Shown: positions 1,319-30,820 of the stretch, in pieces
How positions within the stretch are numbered: the first letter of the stretch is position 1
Layout of the letters: each line of letters begins with the position of its first letter
DNA from: Alphaproteobacteria bacterium
GTDB lineage: Bacteria > Pseudomonadota > Alphaproteobacteria > Rickettsiales > 21-14-0-20-44-7
Assembly: GCA_013288575.1 (NCBI GenBank)
Contig: JABDBO010000003.1
Location: 1 to 33,784, forward strand
Direction: 5' to 3'
DNA: 33,784 nt
Made by a program: the position numbers and the translations under genes
Notes under the pieces: model-generated
The model's input: only the letters and a program-made list of their open reading frames with translations
The model's database searches: none
Told to the model about the DNA's origin: nothing

Positions 1319-1759
1319 CGCATACTCAATTCACATTCGATACCGCGATCGATTATTTCATGCTGCTCTGCGTGATAATCATCTTATTTAGAGTTCTGAA
1401 AGAATTAGGCAGAATAAAAAATTTGAAAACTAACGGCTGCATTGTTAAAGGAACTTTCATTGATAAAAAACTTTGCGAAACATTAAGTGGAAACAGCGTT
1501 TTCTGCAAAATTTCGTATTACTTTGTGGATGAAAAAAAATAATCGCTATGAAATGCCAATTTCTATATTCAATTGGAAATATAGAAAAGCCAAAGCTGGA
1601 GATGAAATTATTATAACTTACGATAAGAACAATCCTAATCGGGCTTTTATCAAAGAGGATATTAATCAACATATTAACACATACTATATTTTGGCAGGAC
1701 TATTTGTTATCCTACTTACTCTCAAAATAATTAGACTATCTGGAATAATAGAAACATAA
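1315..1759 (+). pseudogene. Small two-TM membrane protein (DUF3592-like), split by a frameshift in an A8 run at 1532-1539
   Basis: ORFs 1315..1542 and 1487..1759 join into 147 aa if one A is removed: N-terminal TM, ..G.EI.ITYDKNNP.RA.I.. motif, C-terminal TM. ATGA and TAATG overlaps with both neighbours. Confidence 0.7.
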
Positions 1760-4700
1760 TGACCAACCTAAACCTCTCTCACAACCTGCAATTCCAAGAT
1801 CTCTACGCCCGCGACGGGCTAGCGAAGGTTGATGCCGCATTCGTAAAATTTTTGGAAGCCGCCAACATCGAACTCCACAATAAATTCGTTGCCGCCCGCA
1901 CCAACCCTGAAAGCTTGGAAAAGAAAGACGAATCCAACCTCCTAATCGCCATCGCGCCAATCCTCGAAGATTTCATCAGTGAGCTTTTCAACATCCGCGA
2001 AGCCGTCACCAAACTCCAATTCGCACACAACGAACTCGGCGATCTCTTCACCGCAAAACGCCTCTTCGTCCAACGCGCCGCGGCTAAGTTTTCTAAACCG
2101 GCCGAGCTGCCGGAATTAAATGGGGAAGAATTACAGCAACAACTCCTCCAGCTTTGTCATTCCCGCGAAGGCGGGAATCCAGGGTCGCAAACTCCACAGC
2201 TGGATCCCAGCCTACGCTGGGATGACTGGGAGCTGGAATTATCACGCCATATTATAAAATGGATGGACGCGGGTGACATCGAAAAACAAACCATCGCCGC
2301 CAAATACGCCAATTGGGCGAGCAATAACGAGCACATCGTAAAACACTCAACCATTTTCAAAAAACCAAAAAAACTAGATTTCACTAATCTCGTGCCGATG
2401 GAAACCATCCAGTTCAACGGCGTCACCATGCAGCGCCTGCCCGAACACGAATGGCGCGCCCGCGATGGCTTTGCACTGACCGACCAAGGCGGCTCACTAA
2501 CCTACGCCCTCGACCAGGCCAATTACTGCATCTACTGCCACAATCAAGGCAAAGACCAATGCTCCAAAGGCATGTGGGAAGCGAAAGAGCCAGTTAAAAT
2601 TGTCAAAAAATCGCCAACCAATGTCAACCTCGCTGGCTGCCCATTAGAAGAAAAAATCTCCGAAATGAACATGGTCAAAGCGCAAGGCTTCACCATCGGC
2701 GCGCTCGGAATTGTCACCGTCGATAACCCAATGTGCGCCGGCACCGGCCACCGGATTTGCAATGATTGCATGAAGAGCTGCATCTACCAAAAACAATCCC
2801 CGGTCGATATCCCGCAAGTCGAAACCCGTTCGCTTAAAGACGTGCTCAACCTCCCATGGGGCTTCGAAATCTATTCGCTATTAACCCGCTGGAACCCATT
2901 AAATCTCGCACGCCCATTACCAAAACCCGACACCGGCTATAAAGTATTGGTCGCCGGCTTAGGCCCCGCCGGATTTACGCTGGCCCATCATTTAATGAAT
3001 GACGGCCACACAGTCGTCGGCATCGACGGCTTAAAAATCGAACCTGTAGCGGAACAATATTCCGGCGTAAAATCCGATGGCTCACGCACACCATTCAAAC
3101 CAATAAAAGACATCAACGAAATAAAAGAAAACCTCTCCGAACGCACACTCGCCGGTTTCGGCGGCGTCGCCGAATATGGCATCACCGTCCGCTGGGATAA
3201 AAACTTCCTAAAAATCATCCGCCTCCTCCTCGAACGCCGCGCCCAATTCACCATGATCGGCGGCGTCAGATTCGGCAGCAACATCACTTACAGCCAAGCC
3301 TTCGACTTAGGATTCGACCACATCGCTCTCGCTATGGGCGCCGGAAAACCAACCGTCGTTGACATGAAAAACGGCCTCGCCCGCGGCGTACGCACCGCCA
3401 GTGATTTCCTCATGGCCCTCCAACTCACAGGTGCCGCCAAAAAAGACAGCATCGCCAACCTCACCGTGCGCCTCCCCGTAGTAGTAATCGGCGGCGGCCT
3501 CACCGCAGTCGACTCAGCGACTGAATCCATGGCCTATTACCCTATCCAAGTAGAAAAATTCCTGACGAGAGTTGAAGCCATCGGCCGCGAAAAATATTTC
3601 GCCAAATTAAACGAAGAAGAAAAACTGGTCGCCGAAGAATTTATTTCTCACGCCAAACAACTCCGAAACTCAAAACACGAAACTCAGAAACTTTTAAACG
3701 AATGGGGCGGCGTAACTTTGGCTTACCGCAAAAATCTCCAAGACGCGCCAAGCTATCGCCTAAACCACGAAGAAGTCGAACTCGCCTTCCAGGAAGGCAT
3801 CAACTTCCTCGGCGATGCAACTCCGGTTGAAGTCATCCTCGACAAATTCGGCCATGCTGAAAAGCTCCGCGTCAAAATCGGCACCGAAGAAAAAATCATC
3901 CCCGCCCGCACCATATTAATGGCCGCCGGCACCAGCCCAAACACCATTGCCGCCCGCGAAGAGCCGGAACATTTCGAACTCGATGGCAAATATTTCCGCA
4001 TGATCGATGAGAATGGCGAAATCAAAAAACCAGAATGGATTTCCAAACCATCCAAGGCCAATGTCCTGATGAATATAGACCAGTCTGGCAAAGCCATCAG
4101 CTTCTTCGGCGATTTACACCCTGATTATGCCGGCAACGTAGTAAAAGCCATGGGCAGCGCCAAACAAGGCTACCCGGTCGTCAGCCGCATCCTCGCCAAA
4201 GCCAAACCGAAAAACATCAACACAAATTTCAACCACCTGCTTCGCGCCAAAGTCCACGATGTCGTGCGCCTAACGCCCACAATCATCGAAGTAATCGTCC
4301 ACGCACCGCTTGCCGCGCAAAACTTCCAACCCGGCCAATTCTACAGATTACAAAATTACGAAGCTTTCGCTCCAAAACTCGAAACCCGAAACTCGGAACT
4401 CGAAACTACCTTAGCAATGGAAGGCCTAGCGCTTACTGGCGCCTGGGTTGATAAAGAAAAAGGCCTCATGTCCACCATCGTCTTAGAAATGGGCGGCAGC
4501 AGCGACCTCTGCGCCCACCTCAAGAAAGGCGAACCAGTAGTGCTCATGGGCCCAACCGGCACACCAACTGAAATCCCGAAAAATGAAACCGTCATGTTGG
4601 TCGGCGGCGGATTAGGCAATGCCGTATTATTCTCCATCGGCAAAGCCATGCGCGAAAACGGTTGCAAAGTTCTCTATTTCGCCGGCTACAAAAAACCAAG

Positions 4701-5262
4701 CGACCGCTACAAAATCGAAGAAATCGAAGCCGCATCAGATGTCGTAATCTGGGCCTGCGACGAAGCCGCTGATTTCCACCCCAACCGCAAGAACGACCGC
4801 TTCTTCACCGGCAACATCGTCCAAGCAATCGAAGCTTACGCCACCGGTAAACTCGGCGACACAATAATCAAAACCCAAGACGTCGAACATGTCGTCGTCA
4901 TCGGCAGTGACCGCATGATGGCCGCCGTCGGCTTTGCGCGCCACAACCAGTTAAAACCATATTTGAAAAACAACCACATCGCCATCGGCTCAATCAACTC
5001 ACCGATGCAATGCATGATGAAAGAAATCTGCGCCCAATGCCTGCAACGCCACGTTGACCCTGAAACCGGCAAAGAATTCTTCGTCTACAGCTGCTTCAAC
5101 CAAGACCAAAAACTGGATTTTGTTGATTTCAATTTCCTCAACGACCGCCTAAAACAAAACGGCGCGCAGGAGAAACTAACCGCCATGTGGATCAACAAAA
5201 CCCTCCACGAATTAGGCCTACGCCAGCAACACGCAGCACCTGCCGCTAAGGCGATGGGCTAA
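1759..5262 (+). CDS. FAD-dependent Fe-S oxidoreductase, GltD/NfnB-like module fused to a PyrK/NfnA-like FAD/NAD/2Fe-2S module
   Basis: 1167 aa. CIYCHNQGKDQC, GCP and CAGTGHRICNDCMKSC Fe-S motifs; GLGPAG and VIGGGLTAVD Rossmann motifs; PGQFYRL, MGPTG, VGGGLG and CMMKEICAQC..YSC in the C-terminal part. Confidence 0.88.
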   Translation: MTNLNLSHNLQFQDLYARDGLAKVDAAFVKFLEAANIELHNKFVAARTNPESLEKKDESNLLIAIAPILEDFISELFNIREAVTKLQFAHNELGDLFTAKRLFVQRAAAKFSKPAELPELNGEELQQQLLQLCHSREGGNPGSQTPQLDPSLRWDDWELELSRHIIKWMDAGDIEKQTIAAKYANWASNNEHIVKHSTIFKKPKKLDFTNLVPMETIQFNGVTMQRLPEHEWRARDGFALTDQGGSLTYALDQANYCIYCHNQGKDQCSKGMWEAKEPVKIVKKSPTNVNLAGCPLEEKISEMNMVKAQGFTIGALGIVTVDNPMCAGTGHRICNDCMKSCIYQKQSPVDIPQVETRSLKDVLNLPWGFEIYSLLTRWNPLNLARPLPKPDTGYKVLVAGLGPAGFTLAHHLMNDGHTVVGIDGLKIEPVAEQYSGVKSDGSRTPFKPIKDINEIKENLSERTLAGFGGVAEYGITVRWDKNFLKIIRLLLERRAQFTMIGGVRFGSNITYSQAFDLGFDHIALAMGAGKPTVVDMKNGLARGVRTASDFLMALQLTGAAKKDSIANLTVRLPVVVIGGGLTAVDSATESMAYYPIQVEKFLTRVEAIGREKYFAKLNEEEKLVAEEFISHAKQLRNSKHETQKLLNEWGGVTLAYRKNLQDAPSYRLNHEEVELAFQEGINFLGDATPVEVILDKFGHAEKLRVKIGTEEKIIPARTILMAAGTSPNTIAAREEPEHFELDGKYFRMIDENGEIKKPEWISKPSKANVLMNIDQSGKAISFFGDLHPDYAGNVVKAMGSAKQGYPVVSRILAKAKPKNINTNFNHLLRAKVHDVVRLTPTIIEVIVHAPLAAQNFQPGQFYRLQNYEAFAPKLETRNSELETTLAMEGLALTGAWVDKEKGLMSTIVLEMGGSSDLCAHLKKGEPVVLMGPTGTPTEIPKNETVMLVGGGLGNAVLFSIGKAMRENGCKVLYFAGYKKPSDRYKIEEIEAASDVVIWACDEAADFHPNRKNDRFFTGNIVQAIEAYATGKLGDTIIKTQDVEHVVVIGSDRMMAAVGFARHNQLKPYLKNNHIAIGSINSPMQCMMKEICAQCLQRHVDPETGKEFFVYSCFNQDQKLDFVDFNFLNDRLKQNGAQEKLTAMWINKTLHELGLRQQHAAPAAKAMG
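2156..2226. repeat. 71-bp REP doublet (REPIN / Rickettsia-palindromic-element-like) lying in frame inside the oxidoreductase
   Basis: GTCATTCCCGCGAAGGCGGGAATCCAG (2156-2182) and inverted CTGGATCCCAGCCTACGCTGGGATGAC (2200-2226), each an internal hairpin. Translates as CHSREGGNPGSQTPQLDPSLRWDD. Confidence 0.88.
4376..4407 (+). repeat. Heptamer tandem repeat inside the oxidoreductase
   Basis: AACTCGA AACCCGA AACTCGG AACTCGA AACT, within KLETRNSELET. Confidence 0.7.
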
Positions 5263-5265
5263 GAT

Positions 5266-5736
5266 ATGAAAAAATCATCAGTTATTATCTTCGCTACCTT
5301 TCTTATATGCACCACCGGCTGCAGTAAAAAACCTGTAAATCCTGTTCCTACTTCATTAGAAATTATTTGTGGTGGCGGATTTGGCGGGGCCACTAAATCA
5401 ACATTAGAGAATGGAAAAATAATTCAATCTCCATATTCGCAACCAACCAATAAAACAGTCACCGACATTACTTATGTCGAATGGCAGGATTTTAGAAATA
5501 GTCTGGATAAAATTAACGTCTGGAATTGGCCAAAATCTTGCTCAAGACAAATATTTGATGGTGGTGGTTGCAGCATAAAAATTGTCTATGCTGACAAAAC
5601 ATTAGATAATAAATATTCTAACTCTTATCCTTCAAGTTCCGGCAAATGCATTGATGAATCATACCTGGCAAAAGATTATAATTCTTTCTGGGAAGCCTGG
5701 CGCAAATTGATGAAATTCCATCCACAGAATAATTAG
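5266..5736 (+). CDS. Hypothetical lipoprotein
   Basis: 156 aa. MKKSS, hydrophobic stretch, lipobox-like TTG|C. AT-rich relative to the flanking genes. Confidence 0.8.
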   Translation: MKKSSVIIFATFLICTTGCSKKPVNPVPTSLEIICGGGFGGATKSTLENGKIIQSPYSQPTNKTVTDITYVEWQDFRNSLDKINVWNWPKSCSRQIFDGGGCSIKIVYADKTLDNKYSNSYPSSSGKCIDESYLAKDYNSFWEAWRKLMKFHPQNN

Positions 5737-5874
5737 CTTAAACCACGCGCCACAAACGCCCCGTTTTCAAAAATCTGGTTCTTCCCATAAGTAAACGGCG
5801 CACCCTCCGGCGTCACAACTGAACCACCAGCACTTTGCAAAATCGCCTGGCCTGCCGCCAAAGCGATGGGTTAA
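5733..5874. repeat. Chimeric duplicate: copy of the cysQ 3' end (5736-5859) fused through CCTGCCGC to a copy of the oxidoreductase 3' end (5851-5874)
   Basis: 5736-5859 matches 7572-7695 at 118/124 nt; 5851-5874 matches 5239-5262 at 21/24 nt. All differences are synonymous in the respective parent frames. Confidence 0.93.
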
Positions 5875-6056
5875 TTATCCAAAAGTTTCTTAATCTGGCT
5901 TAGACGCAATTTCAAAACCCTCGCCACAACTTCCGGCTCAATTCCCGCCTTCAATGCAATTTTTGCCGAAATTAATCTACTTTTCACAAACCCAGCCGGA
6001 TTCAACCTTTCTTGTCTTTCTGCCTCTTCCAGCAATTCTTCTGCAAACGGTTTCAT
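5871..6056 (-). CDS. Small hypothetical protein with an HTH-like C-terminus
   Basis: 61 aa. ATGA overlap with the upstream 239-aa gene. AKIALKAGIEPEVVARVLKLRLSQIKKLL has an HTH-like pattern. Confidence 0.7.
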   Translation of the reverse strand: MKPFAEELLEEAERQERLNPAGFVKSRLISAKIALKAGIEPEVVARVLKLRLSQIKKLLDN

Positions 6057-6772
6057 ATTTCTCTCTCTGCCAATTTCCCTTTACAATATGAATGAAACCT
6101 CGCCATCGAATCAGCATCATATCTATCACGACTACCGGTCCAGTTAGTATCTATCATAAGTAACTGACCATATTTTCTGGGTTTTGGTTCATTAGTCATT
6201 CCATCCATATCAGCTATTGCCCAAGCGATTTTTGGATCATCACTACATGATTGCAAAAGTCTTGTTACAAACTCTCTTTCCTCTTTAGGAATAAAATGTT
6301 CATATTGATCAAGATTTTTGATCACACCTGGTCTGAATGACTCAACAGTATCTGGCACAAAGCCATATTTCAGCCAGGCATAACTGCCAATTTCCTCAGA
6401 AGCTACTCTAACTGTAGAGATTTCTTTCATTTCATATATATCTTCCATGTTAACCAACATCTGGGTTGCTGATGCCTTTTGTTGATTTATAAATACATAA
6501 CCTGCAATTAGCTTGGCCTCACCTTCACCAATTTTAAAACAAAAATCAGAATGCTGAATTCTTTGCTGAAATAAATCTATCTGAATTGTTAAAAAACCAG
6601 CTGCATCTACATATAATACAATTTTCTCATACGGCTCCCACGGCGGCATTCCCCTTTTCAATATCTGATATATTTCTTGCGGCGCGCAACCTGGGAAAAA
6701 ACGTTGCCAAAAAATATCTGATTTATGCCCTGTAATGCCTTGCGGGGTTAATAAAATATCATCGTCTCTCAT
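6053..6772 (-). CDS. Hypothetical protein, possible GNAT-like fold (paralog A)
   Basis: 239 aa. SATQMLVNM..ISTVRVASEEIGSYAWLKYGF resembles the GNAT helix-strand-'GF' segment. Clear paralog at 6835-7539. Confidence 0.75.
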   Translation of the reverse strand: MRDDDILLTPQGITGHKSDIFWQRFFPGCAPQEIYQILKRGMPPWEPYEKIVLYVDAAGFLTIQIDLFQQRIQHSDFCFKIGEGEAKLIAGYVFINQQKASATQMLVNMEDIYEMKEISTVRVASEEIGSYAWLKYGFVPDTVESFRPGVIKNLDQYEHFIPKEEREFVTRLLQSCSDDPKIAWAIADMDGMTNEPKPRKYGQLLMIDTNWTGSRDRYDADSMARFHSYCKGKLAEREI

Positions 6773-6810
6773 TAAATAATATTGGCCGGATAAAGTTAAT
6801 AATTAGTTAC
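6773..6810 (-). promoter_or_regulatory. Putative CtrA-dependent leaderless promoter of paralog A
   Basis: Minus strand: GTAA-N7-TTAA (6810-6796), 11 nt, CAATAT (6784-6779), 6 nt, ATG. Confidence 0.6.
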
Positions 6811-6834
6811 TTTATTAATTAACTATTTAAATGA

Positions 6835-7539
6835 CTAGGCCAACCCTTTCTCCGCTAATTTTTCCTGGCAATATGCATTGAATCTTTCCATACTTTCTGG
6901 GTCTTTCCGATCTAGTTTACCACCCCAATTAGTGCCTATAGTAAGCAATTGCCCAAGTTTTAAAGAGCCCGGTTCAGAGATAAAACTTTCTAAATCTGCA
7001 ATCACCCAGGCAATTTTTGGATCAGAAGATTGCAAAATCCCCAGCACAATTTCCCTATCCCACGGGCTTACTAAATTAGCATCCATATTCACTATTACAC
7101 GTTCTTTGAATGATTCAATATCACCTGGCACAAAACCTAATTTTAGCCACGCATAACTGCCAACTTCACATGCACCTACTGTAACCGTATCAATATCAAG
7201 CGCCTCATAAATTTCATTCATATTAGCCAAAAGTTGCGTGGCCGAGCCTGTGGTCTTCTTAAAATAAACTGCAGTATCAGAAAAATAACTATTACCATTC
7301 GTAAAATTAAATACAAAATATGATTAGTGAGCTCCATTGCAATAAAAATTCATTTTTATTTTGAATGAATCATCAGAAACAGAAAATGTTACTTCTTCTT
7401 TTTTATCATACGGCGGCATTCCCCTTTTCAATATCTGATAAATTTCTTGCGGCTCGTGATTTGGAAAAGTCTTTTGCCAAAACTCCTGAGCTTCTTTCCC
7501 CAGATTACCATTAGGACCAAGATTAAATTCTAATTCCAT
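6835..7539 (-). pseudogene. Paralog B of the 239-aa protein, interrupted by one in-frame TAA at 7326-7324
   Basis: ORFs 7324..7539 and 6835..7230 are in the same frame and the intervening codons are open (SYFVFNFTNGNSYFSDTAVYFKKTTGSATQL). Shares PQEIYQILKRGMPP, GSYAWLK.GFVP, DPKIAW.IAD and GQLL.I.TNW.G with paralog A. Confidence 0.85.
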
Positions 7540-7577
7540 TATAAAATTCTAGAACTTAACTATTAAGATTGGCTTAA
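7540..7577 (-). promoter_or_regulatory. Putative CtrA-dependent leaderless promoter of paralog B, box embedded in the cysQ stop region
   Basis: Perfect TTAA-N7-TTAA at 7563-7577, 11 nt, TAGAAT (7551-7546), 6 nt, ATG at 7539. Confidence 0.7.
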
Positions 7578-8309
7578 ACCACGCGCCACAAACGCCCCGT
7601 TTTCAAAAATCTGGTTCTTCCCATAAGTAAACGGCGCACCTTCCGGCGTTACAACGCTACCACCAGCACTTTGCAAAATTGCCTGGCCTGCCGCCGTGTC
7701 CCATTCCATCGTCCGGCCAAAACGCGGGTAAATATCGGCCGCACCTTCCGCAATTAAACAAAACTTCAGCGAACTTGCCGCAGCCACTAATTTCAAATCT
7801 TTAAATTTTGATTTCTGGCTTTCAATATAATGTTTCGTCTCATCATCCATATGGTTGCGGCTGCCCACAATCACCACTCCATCATCCGGCATATGACGGC
7901 AGCGAATTTCCTTCCCATTCTTAAATGCCTTTTTGCCGTCGCCCCAATATTCATCACCACTCACCGGAACATAAATCACCCCGGCCATCGCTTTAAAATC
8001 CTTAACCAAGCCAATATTTACCGTAAACTCACCACTCCCACGAATAAACCCCTTCGTCCCATCCAGCGGATCAACCAAAAAGAAGGTGCCGGAAGTCTGG
8101 CGGTCTTTCGCCCCTTCCTCCGAAACTATTGGAATATCAGGGAAATGCGCTTTGAGCTCCGCCACAATATAGTCATTCGCCGCCATATCCGCCAATGTTA
8201 CGGGTGAATCATCAGCTTTTACAGTGGCCCCAAATTCGCCCTTGTAATAGCCCATAATTATCTTTCCCGCTTGCTTTGCAATATGTGTTAATCTATTAAT
8301 GTCAGCCAA
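7563..8309 (-). CDS. cysQ: 3'(2'),5'-bisphosphate nucleotidase CysQ
   Basis: KADDSPVTLAD, SEE, FLVDPLDGTK.F, SSLKFCLIAEG.AD.YPR, TMEWDTAAG motifs. AAGGAG RBS before a TTG start. Confidence 0.95.
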   Translation of the reverse strand: MADINRLTHIAKQAGKIIMGYYKGEFGATVKADDSPVTLADMAANDYIVAELKAHFPDIPIVSEEGAKDRQTSGTFFLVDPLDGTKGFIRGSGEFTVNIGLVKDFKAMAGVIYVPVSGDEYWGDGKKAFKNGKEIRCRHMPDDGVVIVGSRNHMDDETKHYIESQKSKFKDLKLVAAASSLKFCLIAEGAADIYPRFGRTMEWDTAAGQAILQSAGGSVVTPEGAPFTYGKNQIFENGAFVARGLSQS

Positions 8310-11300: not shown

Positions 11301-13121
11301 GCCGCATTCAACCACATGCACATCTTCCTCGACCCAACTCCTGATGCTGCATCAAGCTTCAAAGAACGCGACCGCCTGTTCCAACTCCCACGCTCCGGCT
11401 GGGATGATTACGACAAAAAACTCATCTCCAAAGGCGGCGGAATTTTCAAACGTTCCGACAAATCAATCAAACTAACGCCGGAAGTAAAACAAGCGCTCGA
11501 CATTAAAGAAAATGAGTTAAACCCTGATGAGCTAATCCGCGCCATCCTAAAATCTCCAGTTGATCTATTGTGGAACGGCGGCATCGGCACTTATGTAAAA
11601 GCTGAGCTAGAGACTGCGCGCGATGTCGGTGATAAAAACAACGACAACTTGCGCATCAACGGCAAAGAACTCCGCGCCAAAGTAGCTGGTGAAGGTGGCA
11701 ACTTAGGTTTCACCCAACTCGGCCGCATCGAATACGCACTTAACGGTGGCCGCTTAAACACCGACGCTATCGATAACTCGGCTGGCGTTGACACTTCCGA
11801 TCATGAAGTAAACATCAAAATTCCTCTACAAGCCGCGATCGAGAAAAAGAAACTTAACATTGCCAACCGCAACAAGTTGTTGGTAAAAATGACAGATGAA
11901 ATCGCTGATCTGGTGCTACGCGATAACTACCTGCAAACTCAGGCAATCTCGATTGCCGAAACCCGTGGATATCTTGGCAACGAAGCTCGCGCCGCACTCA
12001 TGCGCAAACTTGAAGAAGACGGTTTGCTAAAACGCAAAATCGAATTCTTACCAAGTGATGAAGAAATCTTGCGCCGCACATCTTTAAAACTTTCCTTCAC
12101 CCGTCCGGAAGTTTCGGTACTGCTCGCATATAGCAAAATGTGGCTCTACAACCAGCTCATCGAATCTGATCTGCCAGATGATGAATATTTCAAAATTGAT
12201 TTGAACCGCTATTTCCCGGTCGAATTACAAAAGAAATATAAAACCGAGTTGGAAGATCACAAACTCCGCCGCGAAATTATTGCGACATTTGCCACCAACT
12301 CAATCGTCAACCGCGCCGGTTCGACATTCTTCTCAACCATTATCAAAGACACTGGCATGAGTGCGAGCGATATCGCCCGCGCTTACACCGTAACTCGCGA
12401 CGCCTTCAAACTGCGCGACTTATGGAAAGCGATTGAAAACCTCGATGGCAAAGTCGAAGCAAAAGTTCAATATGAAATGTTCCTCTCCATCGGCCGTTTC
12501 ATCGAGCGCCAAACCTTGTGGTTCCTCCGCAACTTGCCATTACCAATCAATGTGGAAAAAACCATCAAGGAATATGCCACCGATATTGCTGAATTCTCCA
12601 GCAAACTTTCCAGCATGTTAAACGAACTGGTTTCCGAACAAATCGAAAAACAGGAAGCCGCACTTACCGAGAAAAACGTTCCGCTCGCACTTGCCAAAAA
12701 AGTGTCATCACTTCGCGCGCTGATTTCCGCCTGCGACGTAGCACTCATCACCCGCACCAGCAAACTGCCGCTGCACATCGTCGGTAAAGTTTATTTCCAA
12801 CTCGGCCAGCGCCTGTCATTCAACTGGCTGCGCCTTGCCGCGCTCGAAATGCCGGCCGATACTTACTGGCAGCGTTTGGCAATTAAAAACCTTATCGATT
12901 CACTCTTTGAGCAACAACGCCGCATCGCTCGCGAAATTACGAGCAGCGCCTGTAAGGGTGATAAATGCGACACCGCATTAGACACCTGGACGGAGAAAAA
13001 CGCCGGCAACCTGGAACGCCACGATAAAATGATCGCCGAGTTGCAACAGTCATCCGATAAGTTTGATTTGGCTATGTTGATAGCGGCAGTGCGCAGAATC
13101 GAAAGCTTGGGCTCGGTTTAA
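8337..13121 (+). CDS. gdhB: Large-subunit NAD-specific glutamate dehydrogenase
   Basis: About 1600 aa. EGIHLRGGMVARGGLRWSDR, VAADKGTATFSD, GVGDMSGDVFGNGML, TDAIDNSAGVDTSDHEVNIKI. Start is uncertain (8319 TTG, 8337 or 8367 ATG). Confidence 0.95.
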   Translation: MTKNSAQNTHMNKTTTKTSTTNKKSQGKNISPLEQFTQNFYSYAFEDELKYQSRDELLAKTENAFKFFEKRKPHEPKIEIDPPQGKDLKPRTILKVLNDDKTFLVDSVIAEVSRLGYKIYEIYHPVLKVNRDKSGKFTEFDSKHGKAESLIYLKISYIEHQVAIDSLKKNLEAVLRALYLAVDDWRSMLVKVDETVKSMHLAQSSFPNDEVDETTDFLKWLADDHFTFLGYSEYEISPKSKKLKLIEDSNLGVSRPEAAQLTDISPEEQAKLSADGDLLQITKSDNKAIVHRSVYMDHIAVKKFDGNGKIIGERRFLGLFASSAYYQMTNTIPIIRRKVKYVQGKSGFARGGHSAKIVQFILDSYPRDEIFQSNADQLLKNILSILELMERPRVGLYMRNDRFDRFISCLIYVPKEKFDTNLRFRIQRILEKSLEGKVTEYYTQISDSPLSRLHLIIKPNSKIGKYDVEELRTKIAEVSNLWSDELLATLAEKFGDRKGEQLFTKYENAFPKDYTAIYSSKHAISDINKIEESLNAHRLEVEFYQSKEDGEVDSYHLKTFNPGDAIALSDVLPILENFGLRVISEKPFFVEPAGGEVGVGISDFEVEPMNKQPINLEEIKELLETAFKKVILVEAENDQLNKLVIFANLPWRDIVLLRAYTRYLRQAGLALGINFFMDALVNQAKLSSRLVDLFHSYFDPKTKLKAEDIIAEINEDLANVSNLNEDRAIRRLSETIEATLRTNFFQTTDVGSNKSYVSFKFDSRKVPDLPLPRPLYEVFVYAPFVEGIHLRGGMVARGGLRWSDRSEDFRTEILGLMKAQMVKNSVIVPVGSKGGFIVKGHVPDDRDAKLKQGIECYKTFLRGVLDVTDNIVKGKIAPPQNVTRRDGDDPYLVVAADKGTATFSDIANSVSEEYGFWLGDAFASGGSAGYDHKKMGITAKGAWISVQRHFREIGVDVQSQDFTCVGVGDMSGDVFGNGMLLSEHIKLVAAFNHMHIFLDPTPDAASSFKERDRLFQLPRSGWDDYDKKLISKGGGIFKRSDKSIKLTPEVKQALDIKENELNPDELIRAILKSPVDLLWNGGIGTYVKAELETARDVGDKNNDNLRINGKELRAKVAGEGGNLGFTQLGRIEYALNGGRLNTDAIDNSAGVDTSDHEVNIKIPLQAAIEKKKLNIANRNKLLVKMTDEIADLVLRDNYLQTQAISIAETRGYLGNEARAALMRKLEEDGLLKRKIEFLPSDEEILRRTSLKLSFTRPEVSVLLAYSKMWLYNQLIESDLPDDEYFKIDLNRYFPVELQKKYKTELEDHKLRREIIATFATNSIVNRAGSTFFSTIIKDTGMSASDIARAYTVTRDAFKLRDLWKAIENLDGKVEAKVQYEMFLSIGRFIERQTLWFLRNLPLPINVEKTIKEYATDIAEFSSKLSSMLNELVSEQIEKQEAALTEKNVPLALAKKVSSLRALISACDVALITRTSKLPLHIVGKVYFQLGQRLSFNWLRLAALEMPADTYWQRLAIKNLIDSLFEQQRRIAREITSSACKGDKCDTALDTWTEKNAGNLERHDKMIAELQQSSDKFDLAMLIAAVRRIESLGSV

Positions 13122-13124
13122 TAC

Positions 13125-13195
13125 GTCGTCCTGCGGCTCGACCGCAGGATCTGGTTTCACAATCAGGAGATCCTATGGTCAAGCCATAGGATGAC
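13125..13195. repeat. 71-bp REP doublet, left copy (type A)
   Basis: GTCGTCCTGCGGCTCGACCGCAGGATC..GATCCTATGGTCAAGCCATAGGATGAC. 69/71 identical to the reverse complement of 13846-13916. Confidence 0.9.
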
Positions 13196-13221
13196 GTTTA
13201 TAATAAAATTTAAAGAACAGA

Positions 13222-13291
13222 GAGCCGTCAGCCCGACGCATCCGTCGGCGTTACCAAACGCGAGCATGCGCAATGCTCGTTTGGTAACAAT
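13222..13291 (+). repeat. Structured repeat type B, copy 1
   Basis: GAGCCGTCAGCC, short hairpin CGACG-CATC-CGTCG, long hairpin GTTACCAAAC..GTTTGGTAAC. Confidence 0.85.
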
Positions 13292-13308
13292 AAAAATACC
13301 CACCTAAT

Positions 13309-13453: not shown

Positions 13454-13765
13454 ATGCAAGAAAATAATGAAAAATCCACAATTCGCGTTTCAATGCCGGT
13501 TAAAACACTGAACGAAATCGAAGATATTCTCGCCGAAACCGGCCTTGAGATTCACGAAGCAGTGCGCTTATATTTAAGCCAAATCGTGCTAAATCACGGC
13601 ATTCCTTATAATGGTTTCAAATCCGGTTTAAAGCCAAAACCTATTAAAGAAAAAAAGCGCGATCAAAAGCGGGAATTTATGCTGGAAGCCGCAGAGCGCG
13701 AACTTGCCATTAGCAAAACTCACAAGGAAATAAAACACAGTGGCGGCCAAATTCCGAAATTATGA
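13454..13765 (+). CDS. RelB/DinJ-family ribbon-helix-helix antitoxin-like protein, no adjacent toxin
   Basis: STIRVSMP..LNEIEDILAETGLEIHEAVRLYLSQIVLNHGIPY follows the DinJ/RelB pattern (..IL...GL....A.R..L..I....GIPF). Confidence 0.75.
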   Translation: MQENNEKSTIRVSMPVKTLNEIEDILAETGLEIHEAVRLYLSQIVLNHGIPYNGFKSGLKPKPIKEKKRDQKREFMLEAAERELAISKTHKEIKHSGGQIPKL

Positions 13766-13833
13766 TTGTTACCAAACGAACGCTCGGGTGCTCGCGTTTG
13801 GTAACAGCGCTGGATGCAGCGGGCTGACGGCTC
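13765..13833 (-). repeat. Structured repeat type B, copy 2 (inverted relative to copy 1)
   Basis: Minus strand GAGCCGTCAGCC-CGCTG-CATC-CAGCG-CT-GTTACCAAACGCGAGCA..CGTTTGGTAACAAT. Confidence 0.85.
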
Positions 13834-13845
13834 CCTAGTCTTGAC

Positions 13846-13916
13846 GTCATCCTATGGCTTGACCATAGGATCTCTTGATTGTGAAACCAGATCCTGCGGT
13901 CGAGCCGCAGGATGAC
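13846..13916. repeat. 71-bp REP doublet, right copy (type A), inverted relative to 13125-13195
   Basis: GTCATCCTATGGCTTGACCATAGGATC..GATCCTGCGGTCGAGCCGCAGGATGAC. Confidence 0.9.
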
Positions 13917-13949
13917 GAATTCTGAGAACACAGGAAATATTTTCCCCTG

Positions 13950-14737: not shown

Positions 14738-14838
14738 GAATACTAATTTGCGCTCGGCGCGCAGCCCCCGCCCTCAATGGGCTTGCCTTCCCGCTGGTCA
14801 GGATCCATAGCATCAACTTTGGCGTGGTTTAAGAACCG

Positions 14839-14895
14839 GAGCCGTCAGCCCGCAGAGCGGTAGTTTAAAGTAGCGCCCGAGCGCTGCCTTTAAAC
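14839..14895 (+). repeat. Structured repeat type B, copy 3 (divergent)
   Basis: GAGCCGTCAGC, hairpin CCGC-AGA-GCGG, long hairpin GTTTAAAG-TAGCGC-CCGA-GCGCTG-C-CTTTAAAC. Confidence 0.7.
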
Positions 14896-14905
14896 ATTTA
14901 TAAAG

Positions 14906-14944: not shown

Positions 14945-16747
14945 ATGGACGTGCCTATTATACCGCCAGTCACTATCCCGCCGCCGCAACCTGCCCCGCA
15001 AGCTGCGCTTAATCAAGGTACGCAGAATAATGCGCCACAAGTTCAGCAGCAACAAACTCAAGCCATCAACCAAATTCCTTTGGGGATCACGGTCGGCCAA
15101 GTGGCCGGTAATGACAAAAACGGTAACTTAATCGTGCGCCTTGCTGGCAGTGATCTGGTTCTCTCAAGCCCAATTGCTTTAGCAAAAGATGCGCTGGTGA
15201 CTTTGAAAATTGATAATATCAGCAGCAATTTGGCCGTGCAGCTTTTAAGCGTTGATGGCAAAACTCCAGCTTCGCAGCCGCAAGCTTTATCAAACCAGTT
15301 GCAACAAAATCCACCAAAAGACCAAAACCAGAATTCGCAAAACCAATTCCAGCAAAATCAGAACGGCAGCGTACCGCTGAAACTTGTTTCGATATTAAAT
15401 TCCAACAGCAGCACAAAACCTGCCGAACCACCTGCTCCTCAGCCAAACCAGGCGCAACCCGCGCAGGTTTATAAAACTGATACGGTAACTCTCACCTCGC
15501 CGCAAACCACTGCCGTTAAGGGAATTATCATCACTCTAGCGCCCGAAGCTGTTCAAAATCTAAAAGCGAATCTGCCATTTGATGAAGGTGATTCAGCCAA
15601 ACTTGCCGATTCTATACCTGAAGAAATCAAACCCGGCACGCAAGTAAATGCAAAAATCACCAGCATTGCCCAACCGCCGCAAAATCCAAATCAGCAGGTG
15701 CAAACTGAAAATAAAACCCTTGCCAAGCAAGATTGGATGCAGCCAGAACAACAAGCCCTAAAAGAATCTGCTGATGAGCCAAATGCTCCCCAGGTAAAAT
15801 TGCAAGAACAGGCCGATAATTTCACCCCCACCCTGCGCCCATTATCCAATGGCAATATCCAGATGAATGCGCGGGTGCTTGATGCCAAACCAAATGGCGA
15901 AATGCTGGTCGAAACTAAAATCGGCAAAATTCTAATTAGCAGCAATCCGCAAATTTCTACCGCCGTCAAAGGCGCGATATTAAAACTTGAACTAACAAAT
16001 TTCAGTCCGCCGGAAAAGGCTGATATTGAATTGCCAAGTGGTGATCAACTACCGCCGGCCCAACAGCTCGGCCATGATTGGCCGGCTCTCAAAACTTTAG
16101 CTGAGCGCGCTGACGAACTCGGCATGCCGCAACTTACCAATCAGCTCGCAGGGATTGATTCAGCTTTCGCTGGCCGTTTAGCAGGTTTTATCAATGCTAT
16201 GAAAACCGGCGATCTTAAAGCCTGGCTTGGTGAAAATGCTTATGACCTGCTTGATGATGGTGATTCTGGCAGCAATCTTTTGGCCAAGCTTAGAGGCGAT
16301 ATAAATAACATCCGCGATATTTTCAACCAGCGTGATAATGGCTGGCAAACTATGCTATTCCCTGTTTATGACGGGAACAGTTTATATCAGGCGCGCATGC
16401 ATGTGAAATATCTGCCTGATGAAGAAACCGGCCAGCCGGATAAAGCCAGCGGCACGCGTTTCATTGTTGAAGTTGATACTAGCCATTTCGGTGAAATTCA
16501 GCTTGATGGTTTAGTGCGCGGCAATATGACAGCCAAACATTTTGATTTAATGGTGCGCACACATAAGAATTTAGAGCTTAATATCCAGGATGATATTCGC
16601 AATATTTTCAGTTCAGCTGGTGAAATTACCGGCTTCCATGGTGATATTGAATTTTCAACCATGAAGGAATTCCCGGTAAATTTGTTTGATAAAATGGTCA
16701 ATAGCTCGCTCGCCAAAAAAATCGACCATAAAGGAATCGAGGCTTAA
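14945..16747 (+). CDS. Pro/Gln-rich protein with a FliK-like (hook-length control) C-terminal domain
   Basis: Long low-complexity P/Q/N tracts, then WQTMLFP..RFIVEVDTSHFGEIQLDGLV..FDLMVRT. Next to MinD/FlhG, fliJ and fliI. ORF track start is 14927; promoter geometry favours 14945. Confidence 0.62.
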   Translation: MDVPIIPPVTIPPPQPAPQAALNQGTQNNAPQVQQQQTQAINQIPLGITVGQVAGNDKNGNLIVRLAGSDLVLSSPIALAKDALVTLKIDNISSNLAVQLLSVDGKTPASQPQALSNQLQQNPPKDQNQNSQNQFQQNQNGSVPLKLVSILNSNSSTKPAEPPAPQPNQAQPAQVYKTDTVTLTSPQTTAVKGIIITLAPEAVQNLKANLPFDEGDSAKLADSIPEEIKPGTQVNAKITSIAQPPQNPNQQVQTENKTLAKQDWMQPEQQALKESADEPNAPQVKLQEQADNFTPTLRPLSNGNIQMNARVLDAKPNGEMLVETKIGKILISSNPQISTAVKGAILKLELTNFSPPEKADIELPSGDQLPPAQQLGHDWPALKTLAERADELGMPQLTNQLAGIDSAFAGRLAGFINAMKTGDLKAWLGENAYDLLDDGDSGSNLLAKLRGDINNIRDIFNQRDNGWQTMLFPVYDGNSLYQARMHVKYLPDEETGQPDKASGTRFIVEVDTSHFGEIQLDGLVRGNMTAKHFDLMVRTHKNLELNIQDDIRNIFSSAGEITGFHGDIEFSTMKEFPVNLFDKMVNSSLAKKIDHKGIEA

Positions 16748-28216: not shown

Positions 28217-30820
28217 ATGGCTTTACATAAAGATTTAAATAGGGGTTTTGCCCTCATTATTCTAGCCGTATTACTCGCCATTTTAGGCTTGGTTCTGATT
28301 AGCCGCGTCCCGGCTCAGCCCGATAAAGATAAAGTTGTTTTTATTAGAACCCAAACCAAGCTGGATGCTATTCATGCAGCTTTGCTGAATTATTATAATC
28401 TTAATTCTGGAACTTTGCCCTGCCCAGCCAATCCAACATTAAACACAAAAATCGATGCCGCTTTCGGCACTGCAGTTGCAACCGGTGCCGCATGTTCCAC
28501 AACCGCTTCCTGCCCCGCAGGTTTAGTTTGTGCAGCGGCTGACCCTAATGCTGCTGGCAATTCTACAGCTAACCAAATTAAAATTGGCGGCGTACCGACT
28601 AAAACTTTAGGCTTGCCTGATGAATATGCTTTTGACGAATGGGGTAACCGCCTGACTTTTGCGGTTGATCCAACTGCTGCCGAAAATATAGGCGTTTATT
28701 ATATTGATCGAACTGGTGCTAGTCCCGCTACTGTTCAATATAGCAACACAGCTAATCCTTGTTACACTTCCGCTTCGGCCGCTACTCCAAATTCCGCAAT
28801 TGCGCCAAAAAATTCACGCTGCTTAACTGACGATGTCTTAAATCCAATTACTATTCCGGCCGGCCAATTGCTAACTTATGGCACACATAAGGGTGTTGCC
28901 GCTTTCATAGTTGCGCATGGCAAAGATGGCTCTGCCATTTGGAACCGTAACGGCACTTCGGCAGGCACTTGTGCTAATTATAAAAATCCTAGCGGCACTG
29001 CGCTTATAACAACGGCAACCAGTGGCCTGGCAATTCCTTCTGAGGTCGAAAATTGTAACAATGATGCTAGCTTTATTATGGATACGGAAGGCGAAACTAA
29101 AGACAGCGCAAGCGGCAAATCAAGTTATTACGATGATCTCACAACCTATTTCGTGCCTGGCAAAACTTGCAATAATCCAATTTTTGCGATGATGATTTTG
29201 TCGGGCAGCGCAGTCTCAAAAGCTGAAAAAGATTATTCTGTCGGTAAGTTATGCGACGATGGAACCTACATGAGCGCGGAACAATTAGCAGCGAGCGATT
29301 CAGGCAACCTCTGGATTGCTACTAACGGTAGCACCGCTGGCAGTATAATGAATGGTAGTTATTGCTTGGAGTTGGCTAATGGTAATCCTTTATGCGTTGT
29401 TACCGGAGGCATAAATACAGATGATAAGATATCATTCCCTATGTTTTGGGCAATCCTGCCGCCAGATACCAAAACTTTTACCGCATCTGGATCAACCAAT
29501 TACACAGGTGCTAATTGCCTACTCGCACCACAACCAGCCCCTCCCGGCGCGGGTGTGAGTTATATCCGGCGCTACAAATCTACTAAATGCGTTGAACTTA
29601 ATACATTCTCAAATGTTGTGATGTGCGCTCTTGGCTCAAACGGCACTAATTCCGGTTTTGGCCATATATTTGAAGTTGATACCAACAACACAACATGTCC
29701 AATTATCCAGACCCCTTCATATTATATATCGGGATCTATGACGAGCACCTATCCGTCTGTCTATAGCGATATACTTGCCTGTGCTCCATTCGTTTCAACT
29801 TCTGATATGGTATGTATAAGACAATGGGCCGGTGGAAGCAAAATAGCTGCGTATAGATTGCCTTCCGTTTATGACCATGATGCACATGCTGGCGGCGCCC
29901 CTAGCGGCTCAACAACAACTTTAAACCCATATCTGCCAGTCGGTACAAATACAACTGCCTATTATATTGGTAAAAATGAAGATGGTGGGCAGGCCGATTG
30001 CAAAACTTTGAGCACTGATGAAGTGCTCTGCGTTGTTGCTTATGAGGATATGTATTACGCCGGGGCCGGCCCAACATATTATTGGCGACCAAGGCTTGAT
30101 GTACTCGTTTTTGACAAAGATATCACCACTACTTCTTTAGCTGATACAACCACTTTATGTACAACTACTAGCGGATCAAGCTCTTGCACAAGCCCAGTTG
30201 CAACAAACCCTATTCGCACAAGCACTAGCGGTACAGACTTGCCTTCGCCTAATCCTAACAATAACTGGAATAGTTATTCGCCAGTCAGCGGCACATATGT
30301 ACCACCTAATATTGGCGGCATGTATGGTTTAACCTTCCATTCCACTGATAATCCTCAGGAATATGCCACTGGTGTCTTTTGCAACCCTTACACAACTTTA
30401 GTTGGCGGCGTATTAACTCCAACTCCTGGCAAATTTACCTGCGTAGTAACTTTTTATGGAACTACTGGCTCTCCTAATGATGGGGTTGATGCGGGAGTAT
30501 TTATTGTCACCGCGGGTAGTAGAAGCTTAAATGTTGCACCAACCATAACTGCAGCGCCCGCCCCTACTTGCTCGAGTGCTGGCGGTTATTATGGCGATTA
30601 TCAAACCTGCTCAAAAACATTCTCAAATAACAATAAATTCTTTTGTTTGCAGCAAAATGGCGGCACCACTTGGTTAACTGGTCACCAATACAGAACTATT
30701 TCTTTCCCTGCTGATGGCAACGGATCATGCTCAATTGGTAAATGGAATGATATCCCATTTTATAATTCTATAACTAATCCGAGTGAAGTTTTGACGCAGA
30801 CTACATTCATTCGTAAATAA
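28217..30820 (+). CDS. Giant pilin-like surface protein 1 (class III signal lacking Glu5, Cys/Thr/Ser/Gly-rich C-terminal region)
   Basis: LNRG|FALIILAVLLAILGLVL, LPCPA, GGVPTKTLGLPDEYAFDEWGNRLTFAVD, AHGKDG and YYDDL resemble pseudopilin-type heads, followed by ~550 aa of Cys-paired sequence. Confidence 0.8.
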   Translation: MALHKDLNRGFALIILAVLLAILGLVLISRVPAQPDKDKVVFIRTQTKLDAIHAALLNYYNLNSGTLPCPANPTLNTKIDAAFGTAVATGAACSTTASCPAGLVCAAADPNAAGNSTANQIKIGGVPTKTLGLPDEYAFDEWGNRLTFAVDPTAAENIGVYYIDRTGASPATVQYSNTANPCYTSASAATPNSAIAPKNSRCLTDDVLNPITIPAGQLLTYGTHKGVAAFIVAHGKDGSAIWNRNGTSAGTCANYKNPSGTALITTATSGLAIPSEVENCNNDASFIMDTEGETKDSASGKSSYYDDLTTYFVPGKTCNNPIFAMMILSGSAVSKAEKDYSVGKLCDDGTYMSAEQLAASDSGNLWIATNGSTAGSIMNGSYCLELANGNPLCVVTGGINTDDKISFPMFWAILPPDTKTFTASGSTNYTGANCLLAPQPAPPGAGVSYIRRYKSTKCVELNTFSNVVMCALGSNGTNSGFGHIFEVDTNNTTCPIIQTPSYYISGSMTSTYPSVYSDILACAPFVSTSDMVCIRQWAGGSKIAAYRLPSVYDHDAHAGGAPSGSTTTLNPYLPVGTNTTAYYIGKNEDGGQADCKTLSTDEVLCVVAYEDMYYAGAGPTYYWRPRLDVLVFDKDITTTSLADTTTLCTTTSGSSSCTSPVATNPIRTSTSGTDLPSPNPNNNWNSYSPVSGTYVPPNIGGMYGLTFHSTDNPQEYATGVFCNPYTTLVGGVLTPTPGKFTCVVTFYGTTGSPNDGVDAGVFIVTAGSRSLNVAPTITAAPAPTCSSAGGYYGDYQTCSKTFSNNNKFFCLQQNGGTTWLTGHQYRTISFPADGNGSCSIGKWNDIPFYNSITNPSEVLTQTTFIRK

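Follow-up and report, generated by a model that had tools for sequence, protein, structure and literature searches.

Two gene cassettes in tandem between convergent host genes

We analysed contig JABDBO010000003.1 (the window, 33,784 nt), which is the whole of contig C3 of a metagenome-assembled genome (MAG, G000; 1.05 Mb in 93 contigs, 58% complete) from an uncultured soil alphaproteobacterium whose same-order relatives have genomes of 1-3.3 Mb. An oxidoreductase gene on the forward strand and a cysQ gene on the reverse strand converge in this window, and two gene cassettes (cargo A and cargo B) lie in tandem between them. At the boundary of the two cassettes, a copy of the 3' end of cysQ is fused to a copy of the 3' end of the oxidoreductase gene within a short identical sequence, CCTGCCGC. 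The features of this slot are as follows.

1759-5262, + strand: oxidoreductase, the left host gene; 1167 aa, glutamate-synthase-beta / 2-polyprenylphenol-hydroxylase-like
5239-5262, + strand: resident oxidoreductase tail, PAAKAMG*, beginning with CCTGCCGC at 5239-5246
5266-5736, + strand: cargo A, a 156-aa open reading frame (ORF); GC 36%
5732-5859, - strand: copy of the cysQ 3' end, 41 codons with an earlier stop at 5733-5735 (repeat search and base comparison)
5851-5859, no strand: chimeric junction CCTGCCGC(C), common to the cysQ copy and the oxidoreductase-tail copy (base comparison)
5851-5874, + strand: oxidoreductase-tail copy, PAAKAMG*, with three silent differences
5871-6056, - strand: cargo B, a 61-aa ORF whose start overlaps the stop of the 239-aa gene (ATGA)
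6053-6772, - strand: cargo B, a 239-aa protein with a predicted GNAT fold (profile and structure comparisons)
6835-7539, - strand: cargo B, a paralogue of the 239-aa gene (46% identity) with one in-frame TAA at 7324-7326
7563-8309, - strand: cysQ (3'(2'),5'-bisphosphate nucleotidase), the right host gene; TIGR01331, E 2e-76, over the cut-off; Pfam Inositol_P
7568-7695, - strand: resident cysQ 3' end, parent of the copy, with CCTGCCGC at 7687-7694

The oxidoreductase matches NCBIfam PRK06567 (E 2e-242, under the curated cut-off) and Pfam Pyr_redox_2. The GC content of the cargo genes is 36-41%, that of the flanks 47-52% and that of the whole genome 43%. Stop codons overlap at both inner ends of the cassettes: the TTAG at 5733-5736 holds the TAG of cargo A and the TAA of the copied cysQ end, and the TTAA at 5871-5874 holds the TAA of the copied oxidoreductase tail and that of the 61-aa gene.

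The copied gene tails differ from their parents by silent changes only

The last 41 codons of cysQ (7572-7694) recur at 5736-5858, and a repeat search extends the match to 128 nt with 95% identity (5732-5859 against 7568-7695). The copied end (GLS*) is two codons shorter than the resident one (GLSQS*). Likewise, the last 24 nt of the oxidoreductase gene (5239-5262) recur at 5851-5874 with 88% identity. The cysQ copies differ by six nucleotides in four codons (at 5805, 5814, 5820-5822 and 5844), all of them silent: Ala GCA/GCG, Ser AGC/TCA, Val GTA/GTG and Glu GAA/GAG. The oxidoreductase tails differ by three nucleotides in three codons (Ala, Lys and Gly), again all synonymous. All nine differences, in seven codons over 144 aligned coding nucleotides, are therefore silent. 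When nine random substitutions were simulated in 144 nt, an all-silent outcome was reached in none of 300,000 trials; the silent fraction of single substitutions is 0.243, and 0.243^7 is 5e-5. Because every difference is silent, both tail copies appear to be former working alleles that evolved as coding sequence in separate lineages.

The cysQ differences are unevenly placed. Positions 5736-5804 are identical to 7572-7640 over 69 nt, and all six differences are confined to 5805-5844. At the junction itself, the overlap is 8 nt or perhaps 9 nt, as CCTGCCGCC is common to the junction and cysQ; beyond these 8-9 G+C-rich identical nucleotides there is no similarity on either side. The 8-mer CCTGCCGC occurs five times in the window (at 5239, 5851, 7687, 24382 on the reverse strand, and 29455), where a mean of 1.33 is expected and five copies were reached in 0 of 100 shuffles.

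An earlier note, made from the letters of this DNA alone, had described this layout of tails, cargo and three CCTGCCGC sites (5239, 5851 and 7687), the nine synonymous differences including the Ser AGC/TCA swap, and the copied stops that overlap cargo stops at 5733-5736 and 5871-5874. All of these were recovered at the same positions in our base-by-base comparison, and the simulation agrees with its view that the copies are formerly functional alleles. Its description of cargo B as a cassette of three genes needs an amendment: two ORFs are intact, and the third is a paralogue broken by the TAA at 7324-7326.

The junction is present in the sequencing reads

One public sequencing run, probably the source of the MAG, contains the stretch. 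As a second assembly, we used independent k=31 contigs of that run (12.4 million letters of contigs). The contig depths of this small and possibly unevenly covered data set are not copy numbers, and stretches left uncovered or unbridged by it were not counted as absence. The k=31 contigs cover the whole stretch with zero differing bases. A single unbranched contig of 895 nt (5775-6669, depth 45) begins with the variants specific to the cysQ copy and continues through the junction and the copied oxidoreductase tail into cargo B. No branch leads from it to the cysQ body or to the oxidoreductase body, although rare variants can drop out of contigs of this type. The junction is thus present in the reads.

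We considered whether the junction is an artefact, either of the co-assembly of two strains or of a chimera formed during amplification or library preparation. The MAG comes from a mixed sample with signs of variants and the junction is seen in one run only, as such an artefact would allow. However, the 8-9 nt overlap is too short for a de Bruijn assembler to join, and the second assembler gives the same junction in an unbranched contig. The two copies of each tail are 5-12% diverged, so the junction is not a within-genome chimera. A chimera present in a minority of molecules should also leave the native continuations visible beside it, and these are absent. A similar scar also exists in a separate genome, G001, described below. 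An artefact of this kind is highly improbable.

The slot varies among relatives

Among 40 relatives compared, the two host genes are adjacent in G001 (a sister species in the same genus), G003 and G004. Together with the MAG, these four family genomes hold four different contents between the oxidoreductase gene and cysQ. The slot of G001 carries a 209-aa ORF, that of G004 a 364-aa ORF, and that of G003 a 188-aa ORF and a ParD/YafQ toxin-antitoxin pair. The cargo of these three slots is unrelated to the window cargo in tblastn searches, and none of the three slots contains a tail copy. In G003 (contig C87, 1956-2565), the last gene of the ParD/YafQ pair overlaps the stop of cysQ by 4 nt.

The interval is thus not invariant among relatives; the earlier note had named an invariant interval as an outcome that would speak against its proposal. 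The slot is variable at the genus level, but a single stacked state in a single genome does not make a hotspot, and the note's further idea of an accretion hotspot is unproven: we found one stacking event, no strain-level alleles, and no tail copies in the corresponding intervals of the three relatives.

Tail scars elsewhere in the genus

We compared the ends of 959 MAG ORFs with the 4-5 kb downstream of each. Reversed tails, used as controls, yielded no hit; the true tails yielded four at a length of 24 nt and four at 30 nt. The hits in the MAG are the oxidoreductase gene, cysQ, a tandem paralogue pair, a tail repeat on contig C21 and an aminotransferase gene on contig C50. The hits on contig C5 are tandem paralogues and were rejected as scars. 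In the C50 case, a class-IV aminotransferase gene is followed by a 163-aa ORF that has no family match, and beyond this ORF the final 30 nt of the aminotransferase gene are repeated. The two tails, at 4607-4638 and 5245-5276, read ADFDKLSHG* and ADFDKLSQG* and have three differences, one of them non-silent. This aminotransferase gene has no conserved downstream neighbour in four relatives, so no empty site could be demonstrated. On C21 (about 15488-15563), the last 35 nt of a gene for a 187-aa protein, which by reading of the protein is probably a dCTP deaminase, are repeated after a 7-nt spacer with differences in an Ala codon (GCG/GCT) and in the stop (TAG/TAA); this repeat lies within 150 nt of the contig end.

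The same scan of G001 (1.03 of 1.9 Mb, 969 ORFs) gave five hits. Four of these are not scars (three paralogues and one palindromic repeat). The remaining hit is hisF, whose last 45 nt recur 564-609 nt downstream with silent differences only (Val, Arg and Leu). Between the two hisF tails (contig C7, 12923-14299) lies a BrnT / CopG-type antitoxin (BrnT/BrnA) pair, which converges on hisF and overlaps its stop. The hisF-tail copy adjoins hisE, lying just upstream of it, and hisE directly follows hisF in two of three other family genomes. Since the copy adjoins the native neighbour of hisF in two of these three relatives, we conclude that in G001 a toxin-antitoxin cassette, bringing a hisF tail of its own, went in 45 nt ahead of the former hisF stop.

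The earlier note had suggested a genome-wide scan for similar double-tail junctions. The scan did find single-tail scars in the MAG and in G001. A pattern in which cargo arrives with a replacement tail and the old tail is left behind thus recurs in this genus.

A composite of two slot alleles

We favour, with a rough probability of 60%, the reading that the locus is a composite of two alternative alleles of the slot, joined by one homologous exchange and one microhomology join. This reading builds on the observed anatomy, on the silent-only divergence of the tails and on the junction seen in the reads. Allele A would have been oxidoreductase, 156-aa gene, cysQ; allele B would have been oxidoreductase, 61-aa gene, GNAT-fold gene with its paralogue, cysQ. 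In both, the cargo would have directly abutted the host genes, its stops overlapping theirs. A cell with one allele would have received DNA of the other. A homologous exchange would then have taken place in the common cysQ end, most likely within the now-identical 69-nt block, and an illegitimate join at the chance 8-9 nt of CCTGCCGC(C) would have linked the oxidoreductase tail of one allele to the cysQ of the other. As an outcome, a cassette would have been added instead of replaced, and the surplus tails of cysQ and of the oxidoreductase gene would have been left fused to each other. In one variant, a linear fragment would have been taken in by homology-facilitated illegitimate recombination (HFIR). 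In another, a segment would have been circularised at the 8-mer and inserted in the Campbell manner, giving the same product as HFIR. A site-specific recombinase would be unneeded, and RecA would presumably have acted. How the DNA entered, where the crossover fell and in which order the events took place are inferred. The mechanism belongs to a known class, hybrid homologous/illegitimate recombination, and is not a new mobile system.

Several observations fit this reading. The microhomology side of the join measures 8-9 nt, and the other end lies in the 124-128 nt of cysQ tail homology (95%). The silent-only divergence and the low GC content of the cargo fit an insert from another lineage, and no donor was found among the sequences searched. 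All cysQ differences fall in the 55 nt on the junction side of the tail, and the 69 nt on the cargo side have none; if the alleles were elsewhere as divergent as in their variable parts (7 of 26 codons), 23 successive codons without a change would have a probability of about 7e-4 by our own arithmetic. Because the differences all lie outside it, the 69-nt block may have been the place of a RecA exchange or of a later conversion. Compared with an anchor far inside cysQ, the pattern would slightly favour an exchange within the tail, of the Campbell type. All four relatives examined encode full-length RecA. ComEC is encoded in five of five family genomes, but as 10 of 14 controls encode it too, it is uninformative. 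The tandem join of two slot alleles proposed by the earlier note stands in so far as the layout fits an 8-9 nt microhomology join and the junction is in the reads, but the linkage of the two cassettes is unbridged.

Other observations weigh against the composite. No k=31 contig bridges the 69-nt exact repeat (5736-5804 = 7572-7640), so that a single molecule across both cassettes, a point raised by the earlier note, is not borne out over this repeat; the order lipoprotein-like gene (cargo A), repeat, junction comes from the MAG assembler alone. The k-mer depths of the inner contigs are 35, 45, 47, 55 and 48, against 16.5 and 16.1 in the flanks and 95 in the repeat, and this inner depth of 2-3.4 times that of the flanks is not predicted by a single-copy composite in one strain. 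The depth excess over 5509-7601 is unexplained, and we do not take it as evidence for circles. The k=31 contigs also break at 5509-5538 and 6856-6885, two places that are not repeated in the MAG, and therefore other variants are present in the sample. The sequence is found in one run only, probably the source; the cargo proteins are found on this contig only; and neither single-cassette allele was found, the best of 484 CysQ relatives on metagenome contigs being 61% identical. A recA gene was not found in the 58%-complete MAG, probably because of its incompleteness. The clustering of the cysQ differences is weak as statistics, since four codon events falling in 55 of 124 nt have a probability of about 0.04 by our own arithmetic.

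The unbridged repeat gives rise to the serious rival of the composite, which is an assembler mispath at the 69-nt block. In this case, the chromosome would carry allele A only, and the 1836-nt unit of cysQ tail, CCTGCCGC, oxidoreductase tail and cargo B would be separate and head to tail, either as a circle cut out of an allele-B chromosome at the 8-mer or as a tandem array. In the k=31 graph, contigs 5509-5765 and 7411-7601 lead into the repeat node, contig 5775-6669 and the one from 7611 onwards lead out of it, and either pairing fits. The distance from 5851 to 7687 is exactly one unit of 1836 nt, and the contigs of this unit have depths of 45-55 against about 16 in the flanks. On the other hand, contig 5509-5765, which contains the end of the lipoprotein-like gene, has a depth of 35 and not 16, which the mispath also leaves unexplained. 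Family searches found no replication gene in the 1836-nt unit, and its excision at two 8-mers would truncate both host genes. Moreover, depth is an unreliable measure for short contigs, and the composite path is the one taken by the MAG assembler, which had longer words or read pairs to work with. We consider the mispath unlikely.

The geometry of the junction also allows a tandem duplication of the allele-B interval between CCTGCCGC sites, followed by allele replacement of the cargo or of the cysQ side. Short repeats are common join points of bacterial duplications. Here, the end of the unit is joined to its start on the same strand, and the raised depth of the unit could reflect further amplification. 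However, at least two further events would be needed, the two units have no cargo in common (only the tails and the paralogue similarity within cargo B are repeated), and the silent tail differences would require a later exchange ending inside the 124-nt tail. A duplication is accordingly quite unlikely.

Beyond the composite itself, we offer a doubtful but wider idea. Small selfish cassettes of this lineage, such as toxin-antitoxin-like pairs and GNAT-fold genes, might travel with the end codons of core genes as homology arms, with short circles closed at chance microhomologies as intermediates. On this view, copies of the 1836-nt unit that are free or in tandem would account for its roughly threefold depth, and the scars at cysQ, the oxidoreductase gene, the aminotransferase gene and hisF would all be products of one recurrent route that works without a recombinase.

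Cargo genes and recombinase genes

None of the cassette ORFs matches a Pfam or NCBIfam family. The 156-aa protein of cargo A has an N-terminal hydrophobic stretch with a Cys and, by reading alone, is lipoprotein-like. An HMMER scan with the 239-aa protein of cargo B found 349 representatives at E<=1e-3, 29 at 1e-10 and three at 1e-30. These homologues include some stand-alone proteins of about 250 aa and many very large ones, which match residues of about 97-231, often at their extreme C-terminus. The C-terminal 135 aa or so of the 239-aa protein thus recur in large phage and conjugative-element proteins, which we take to be of the class called polyvalent proteins. When 18 large homologues were scanned, GNAT was found on the matching stretch in five; Phage_Mu_F was found in four, ADP-ribosyltransferase in two, Zeta toxin in one and a portal domain in one, and seven had no domain. 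The consensus of a 34-member family alignment contains QGxGxA, which may correspond to the GNAT acetyl-CoA loop (Q/R-x-x-G-x-G/A); this is a reading of the family consensus, not of the window protein. A profile of the family matches acetyltransferases of the PDB weakly (best E 8e-5). An alignment-based structure model of the 239-aa protein has a pLDDT of 90.4 and was used in place of a single-sequence model (pLDDT 40.9), which was discarded. Foldseek gave GCN5/PCAF as its best match (E 5e-3, with nothing under 1e-3), and in VIA-align most of the 50 rows are GNAT enzymes with Z of 5.6-7.8, all below the caution line of 8. Together, these comparisons support a predicted GNAT-fold domain such as is found in the polyvalent proteins of phages and conjugative elements.

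The 61-aa and 239-aa genes are coupled by the 4-nt ATGA overlap, and AtaT comes no higher than rank 46 (Z 5.7) in the VIA-align list of the 239-aa protein. Our searches gave neither a family match nor relatives for the 61-aa protein. Judged from the gene arrangement, a toxin-antidote relation of the two proteins is possible. Apart from its single in-frame TAA, the broken paralogue has an open frame of 237 codons, and it gave the only PHROGs match, a weak one (E 0.004). In word-based protein searches, the 239-aa protein (1 of 113 candidates) and the 61-aa protein (1 of 2) each matched nothing but itself. No tblastn match at E<=0.01 was found for five cargo peptides against 99 loci, and none for the 239-aa protein in 72,556 plasmid and 50,697 phage records.

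That no recombinase lies nearby, as the earlier note had remarked, is confirmed for the contig: none of its 32 ORFs matches an integrase or transposase model of NCBIfam at E<=1e-5, and there is no phage structural gene in the cassettes or elsewhere on the contig. For tyrosine recombinases, PF00589 has three hits in the MAG, on contigs C17, C6 and C27 and none on C3; serine recombinases and DDE transposases were not searched for genome-wide.

These results bear on another explanation, in which the tail copies are decayed att scars of one or two integrative elements that inserted at the 3' ends of cysQ and the oxidoreductase gene, supplied replacement tails and later lost their integrase. Direct repeats of a gene 3' end, silent differences and a crossover at the 5' edge of the repeat are what such an element would be expected to leave. 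Moreover, the cargo domain is typical of phage and conjugative-element proteins, and the hisF/BrnTA insertion of G001 looks alike. However, the cassettes and the 33.8-kb contig lack an integrase, a transposase and a phage structural gene, and the 239-aa protein was absent from the plasmid and phage records. The same 8-mer core would be needed in two unrelated genes, the two tails are fused directly with nothing between them, and the repeat search found no inverted repeats flanking the 8-mers. We therefore regard this origin as very unlikely.

Other observations on the window and related genomes

An NCBIfam profile search of the gene content found CtrA, a DivJ/PdhS-like kinase and FliI/FliJ, in addition to the oxidoreductase, which is of the Rickettsia-type PRK06567-like kind; this gene set indicates a small-genome alphaproteobacterium. 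Two adjacent ORFs of 867 and 904 aa without NCBIfam match share about 730 nt at 80% identity (28229-28957 and 30900-31622) and are tandem paralogues. At 13120-13297, 13759-13921 and 14744-14904, an inverted 178-nt pair (80%) flanks a small ORF, and a dispersed repeat of 110-170 nt has copies on contigs C4, C10, C30, C34, C73 and C75 of the MAG (72-88% identity). Contig C58 has a 732-nt inverted repeat of 99.9% identity (1-732 and 5409-6140) at or near both ends of its 6.1 kb. In G001, an ORF near position 3440 of contig C18 ends in codons made up of a palindromic repeat, GTCATCCTGAGC...GCTCAGGATGAC. The oxidoreductase of G001 has an extra segment, 'PSLREE...', that is absent from the window protein and may be an in-frame insertion of such a palindromic element.

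Comparison with known systems

At this locus, both parents of an illegitimate junction are kept beside the junction, so that the event can be read base by base, which is rare outside laboratory transformation. It shows how a replacement slot can gain a second cassette instead, and it suggests that small toxin-antitoxin-like modules spread in reduced-genome alphaproteobacteria without a recombinase of their own. It does not establish a new type of mobile element, but it is a well-preserved natural trace and a clue to the way in which small selfish cassettes come to lie at gene ends in reduced genomes. In our literature searches, which were limited and did not extend to supplements, we met no description of a comparable double 3'-end junction and nothing relevant on toxin-antitoxin cassettes flanked by duplicated gene ends.

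By the features tested, the arrangement is not an integron, a transposon or an integrative element. Like an integron array, it has small promoterless cassettes placed head to tail at one site; unlike an integron, it has no intI on the contig, and its arms are host gene ends. In common with phages and islands that integrate at gene 3' ends, its cargo is flanked by a duplicated gene end with silent differences, but there is no integrase on the contig and the tails of two genes are fused at one 8-mer. A tandem duplication has the same join geometry, whereas the units here carry unrelated cargo.

In a Campbell-type insertion, circular DNA enters by a single crossover at a short homology. The direct repeats around the insert (the 124-nt cysQ tail) are like those left by such an event, in which the exchange is expected in the longest identical block, here 69 nt. 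A difference is that the circle would have needed an illegitimate closure at 8-9 nt, and no circle was seen in the available data.

The part of PMC4033161 on replacement and additive flexible genomic islands describes variable slots between conserved genes that are exchanged via their flanks. The present slot is much like these, but measures only 0.5-2.4 kb, and would be a replacement slot turned additive by one imprecise exchange.

The closest likeness is to HFIR. In the passage of PMC6382021 that cites de Vries & Wackernagel 2002, HFIR junctions of Acinetobacter baylyi, Streptococcus pneumoniae and Pseudomonas stutzeri have microhomologies of 3-10 bp; according to the same passage, one side is anchored by homology, the process depends on RecA, and foreign DNA is added without a site-specific recombinase. 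The 8-9 nt join of the window falls within this range of 3-10 bp, and its other end is homologous. It differs in being read from a natural scar in an uncultured bacterium, in which donor and recipient would both be alleles of one slot and the end of a recipient gene is duplicated.

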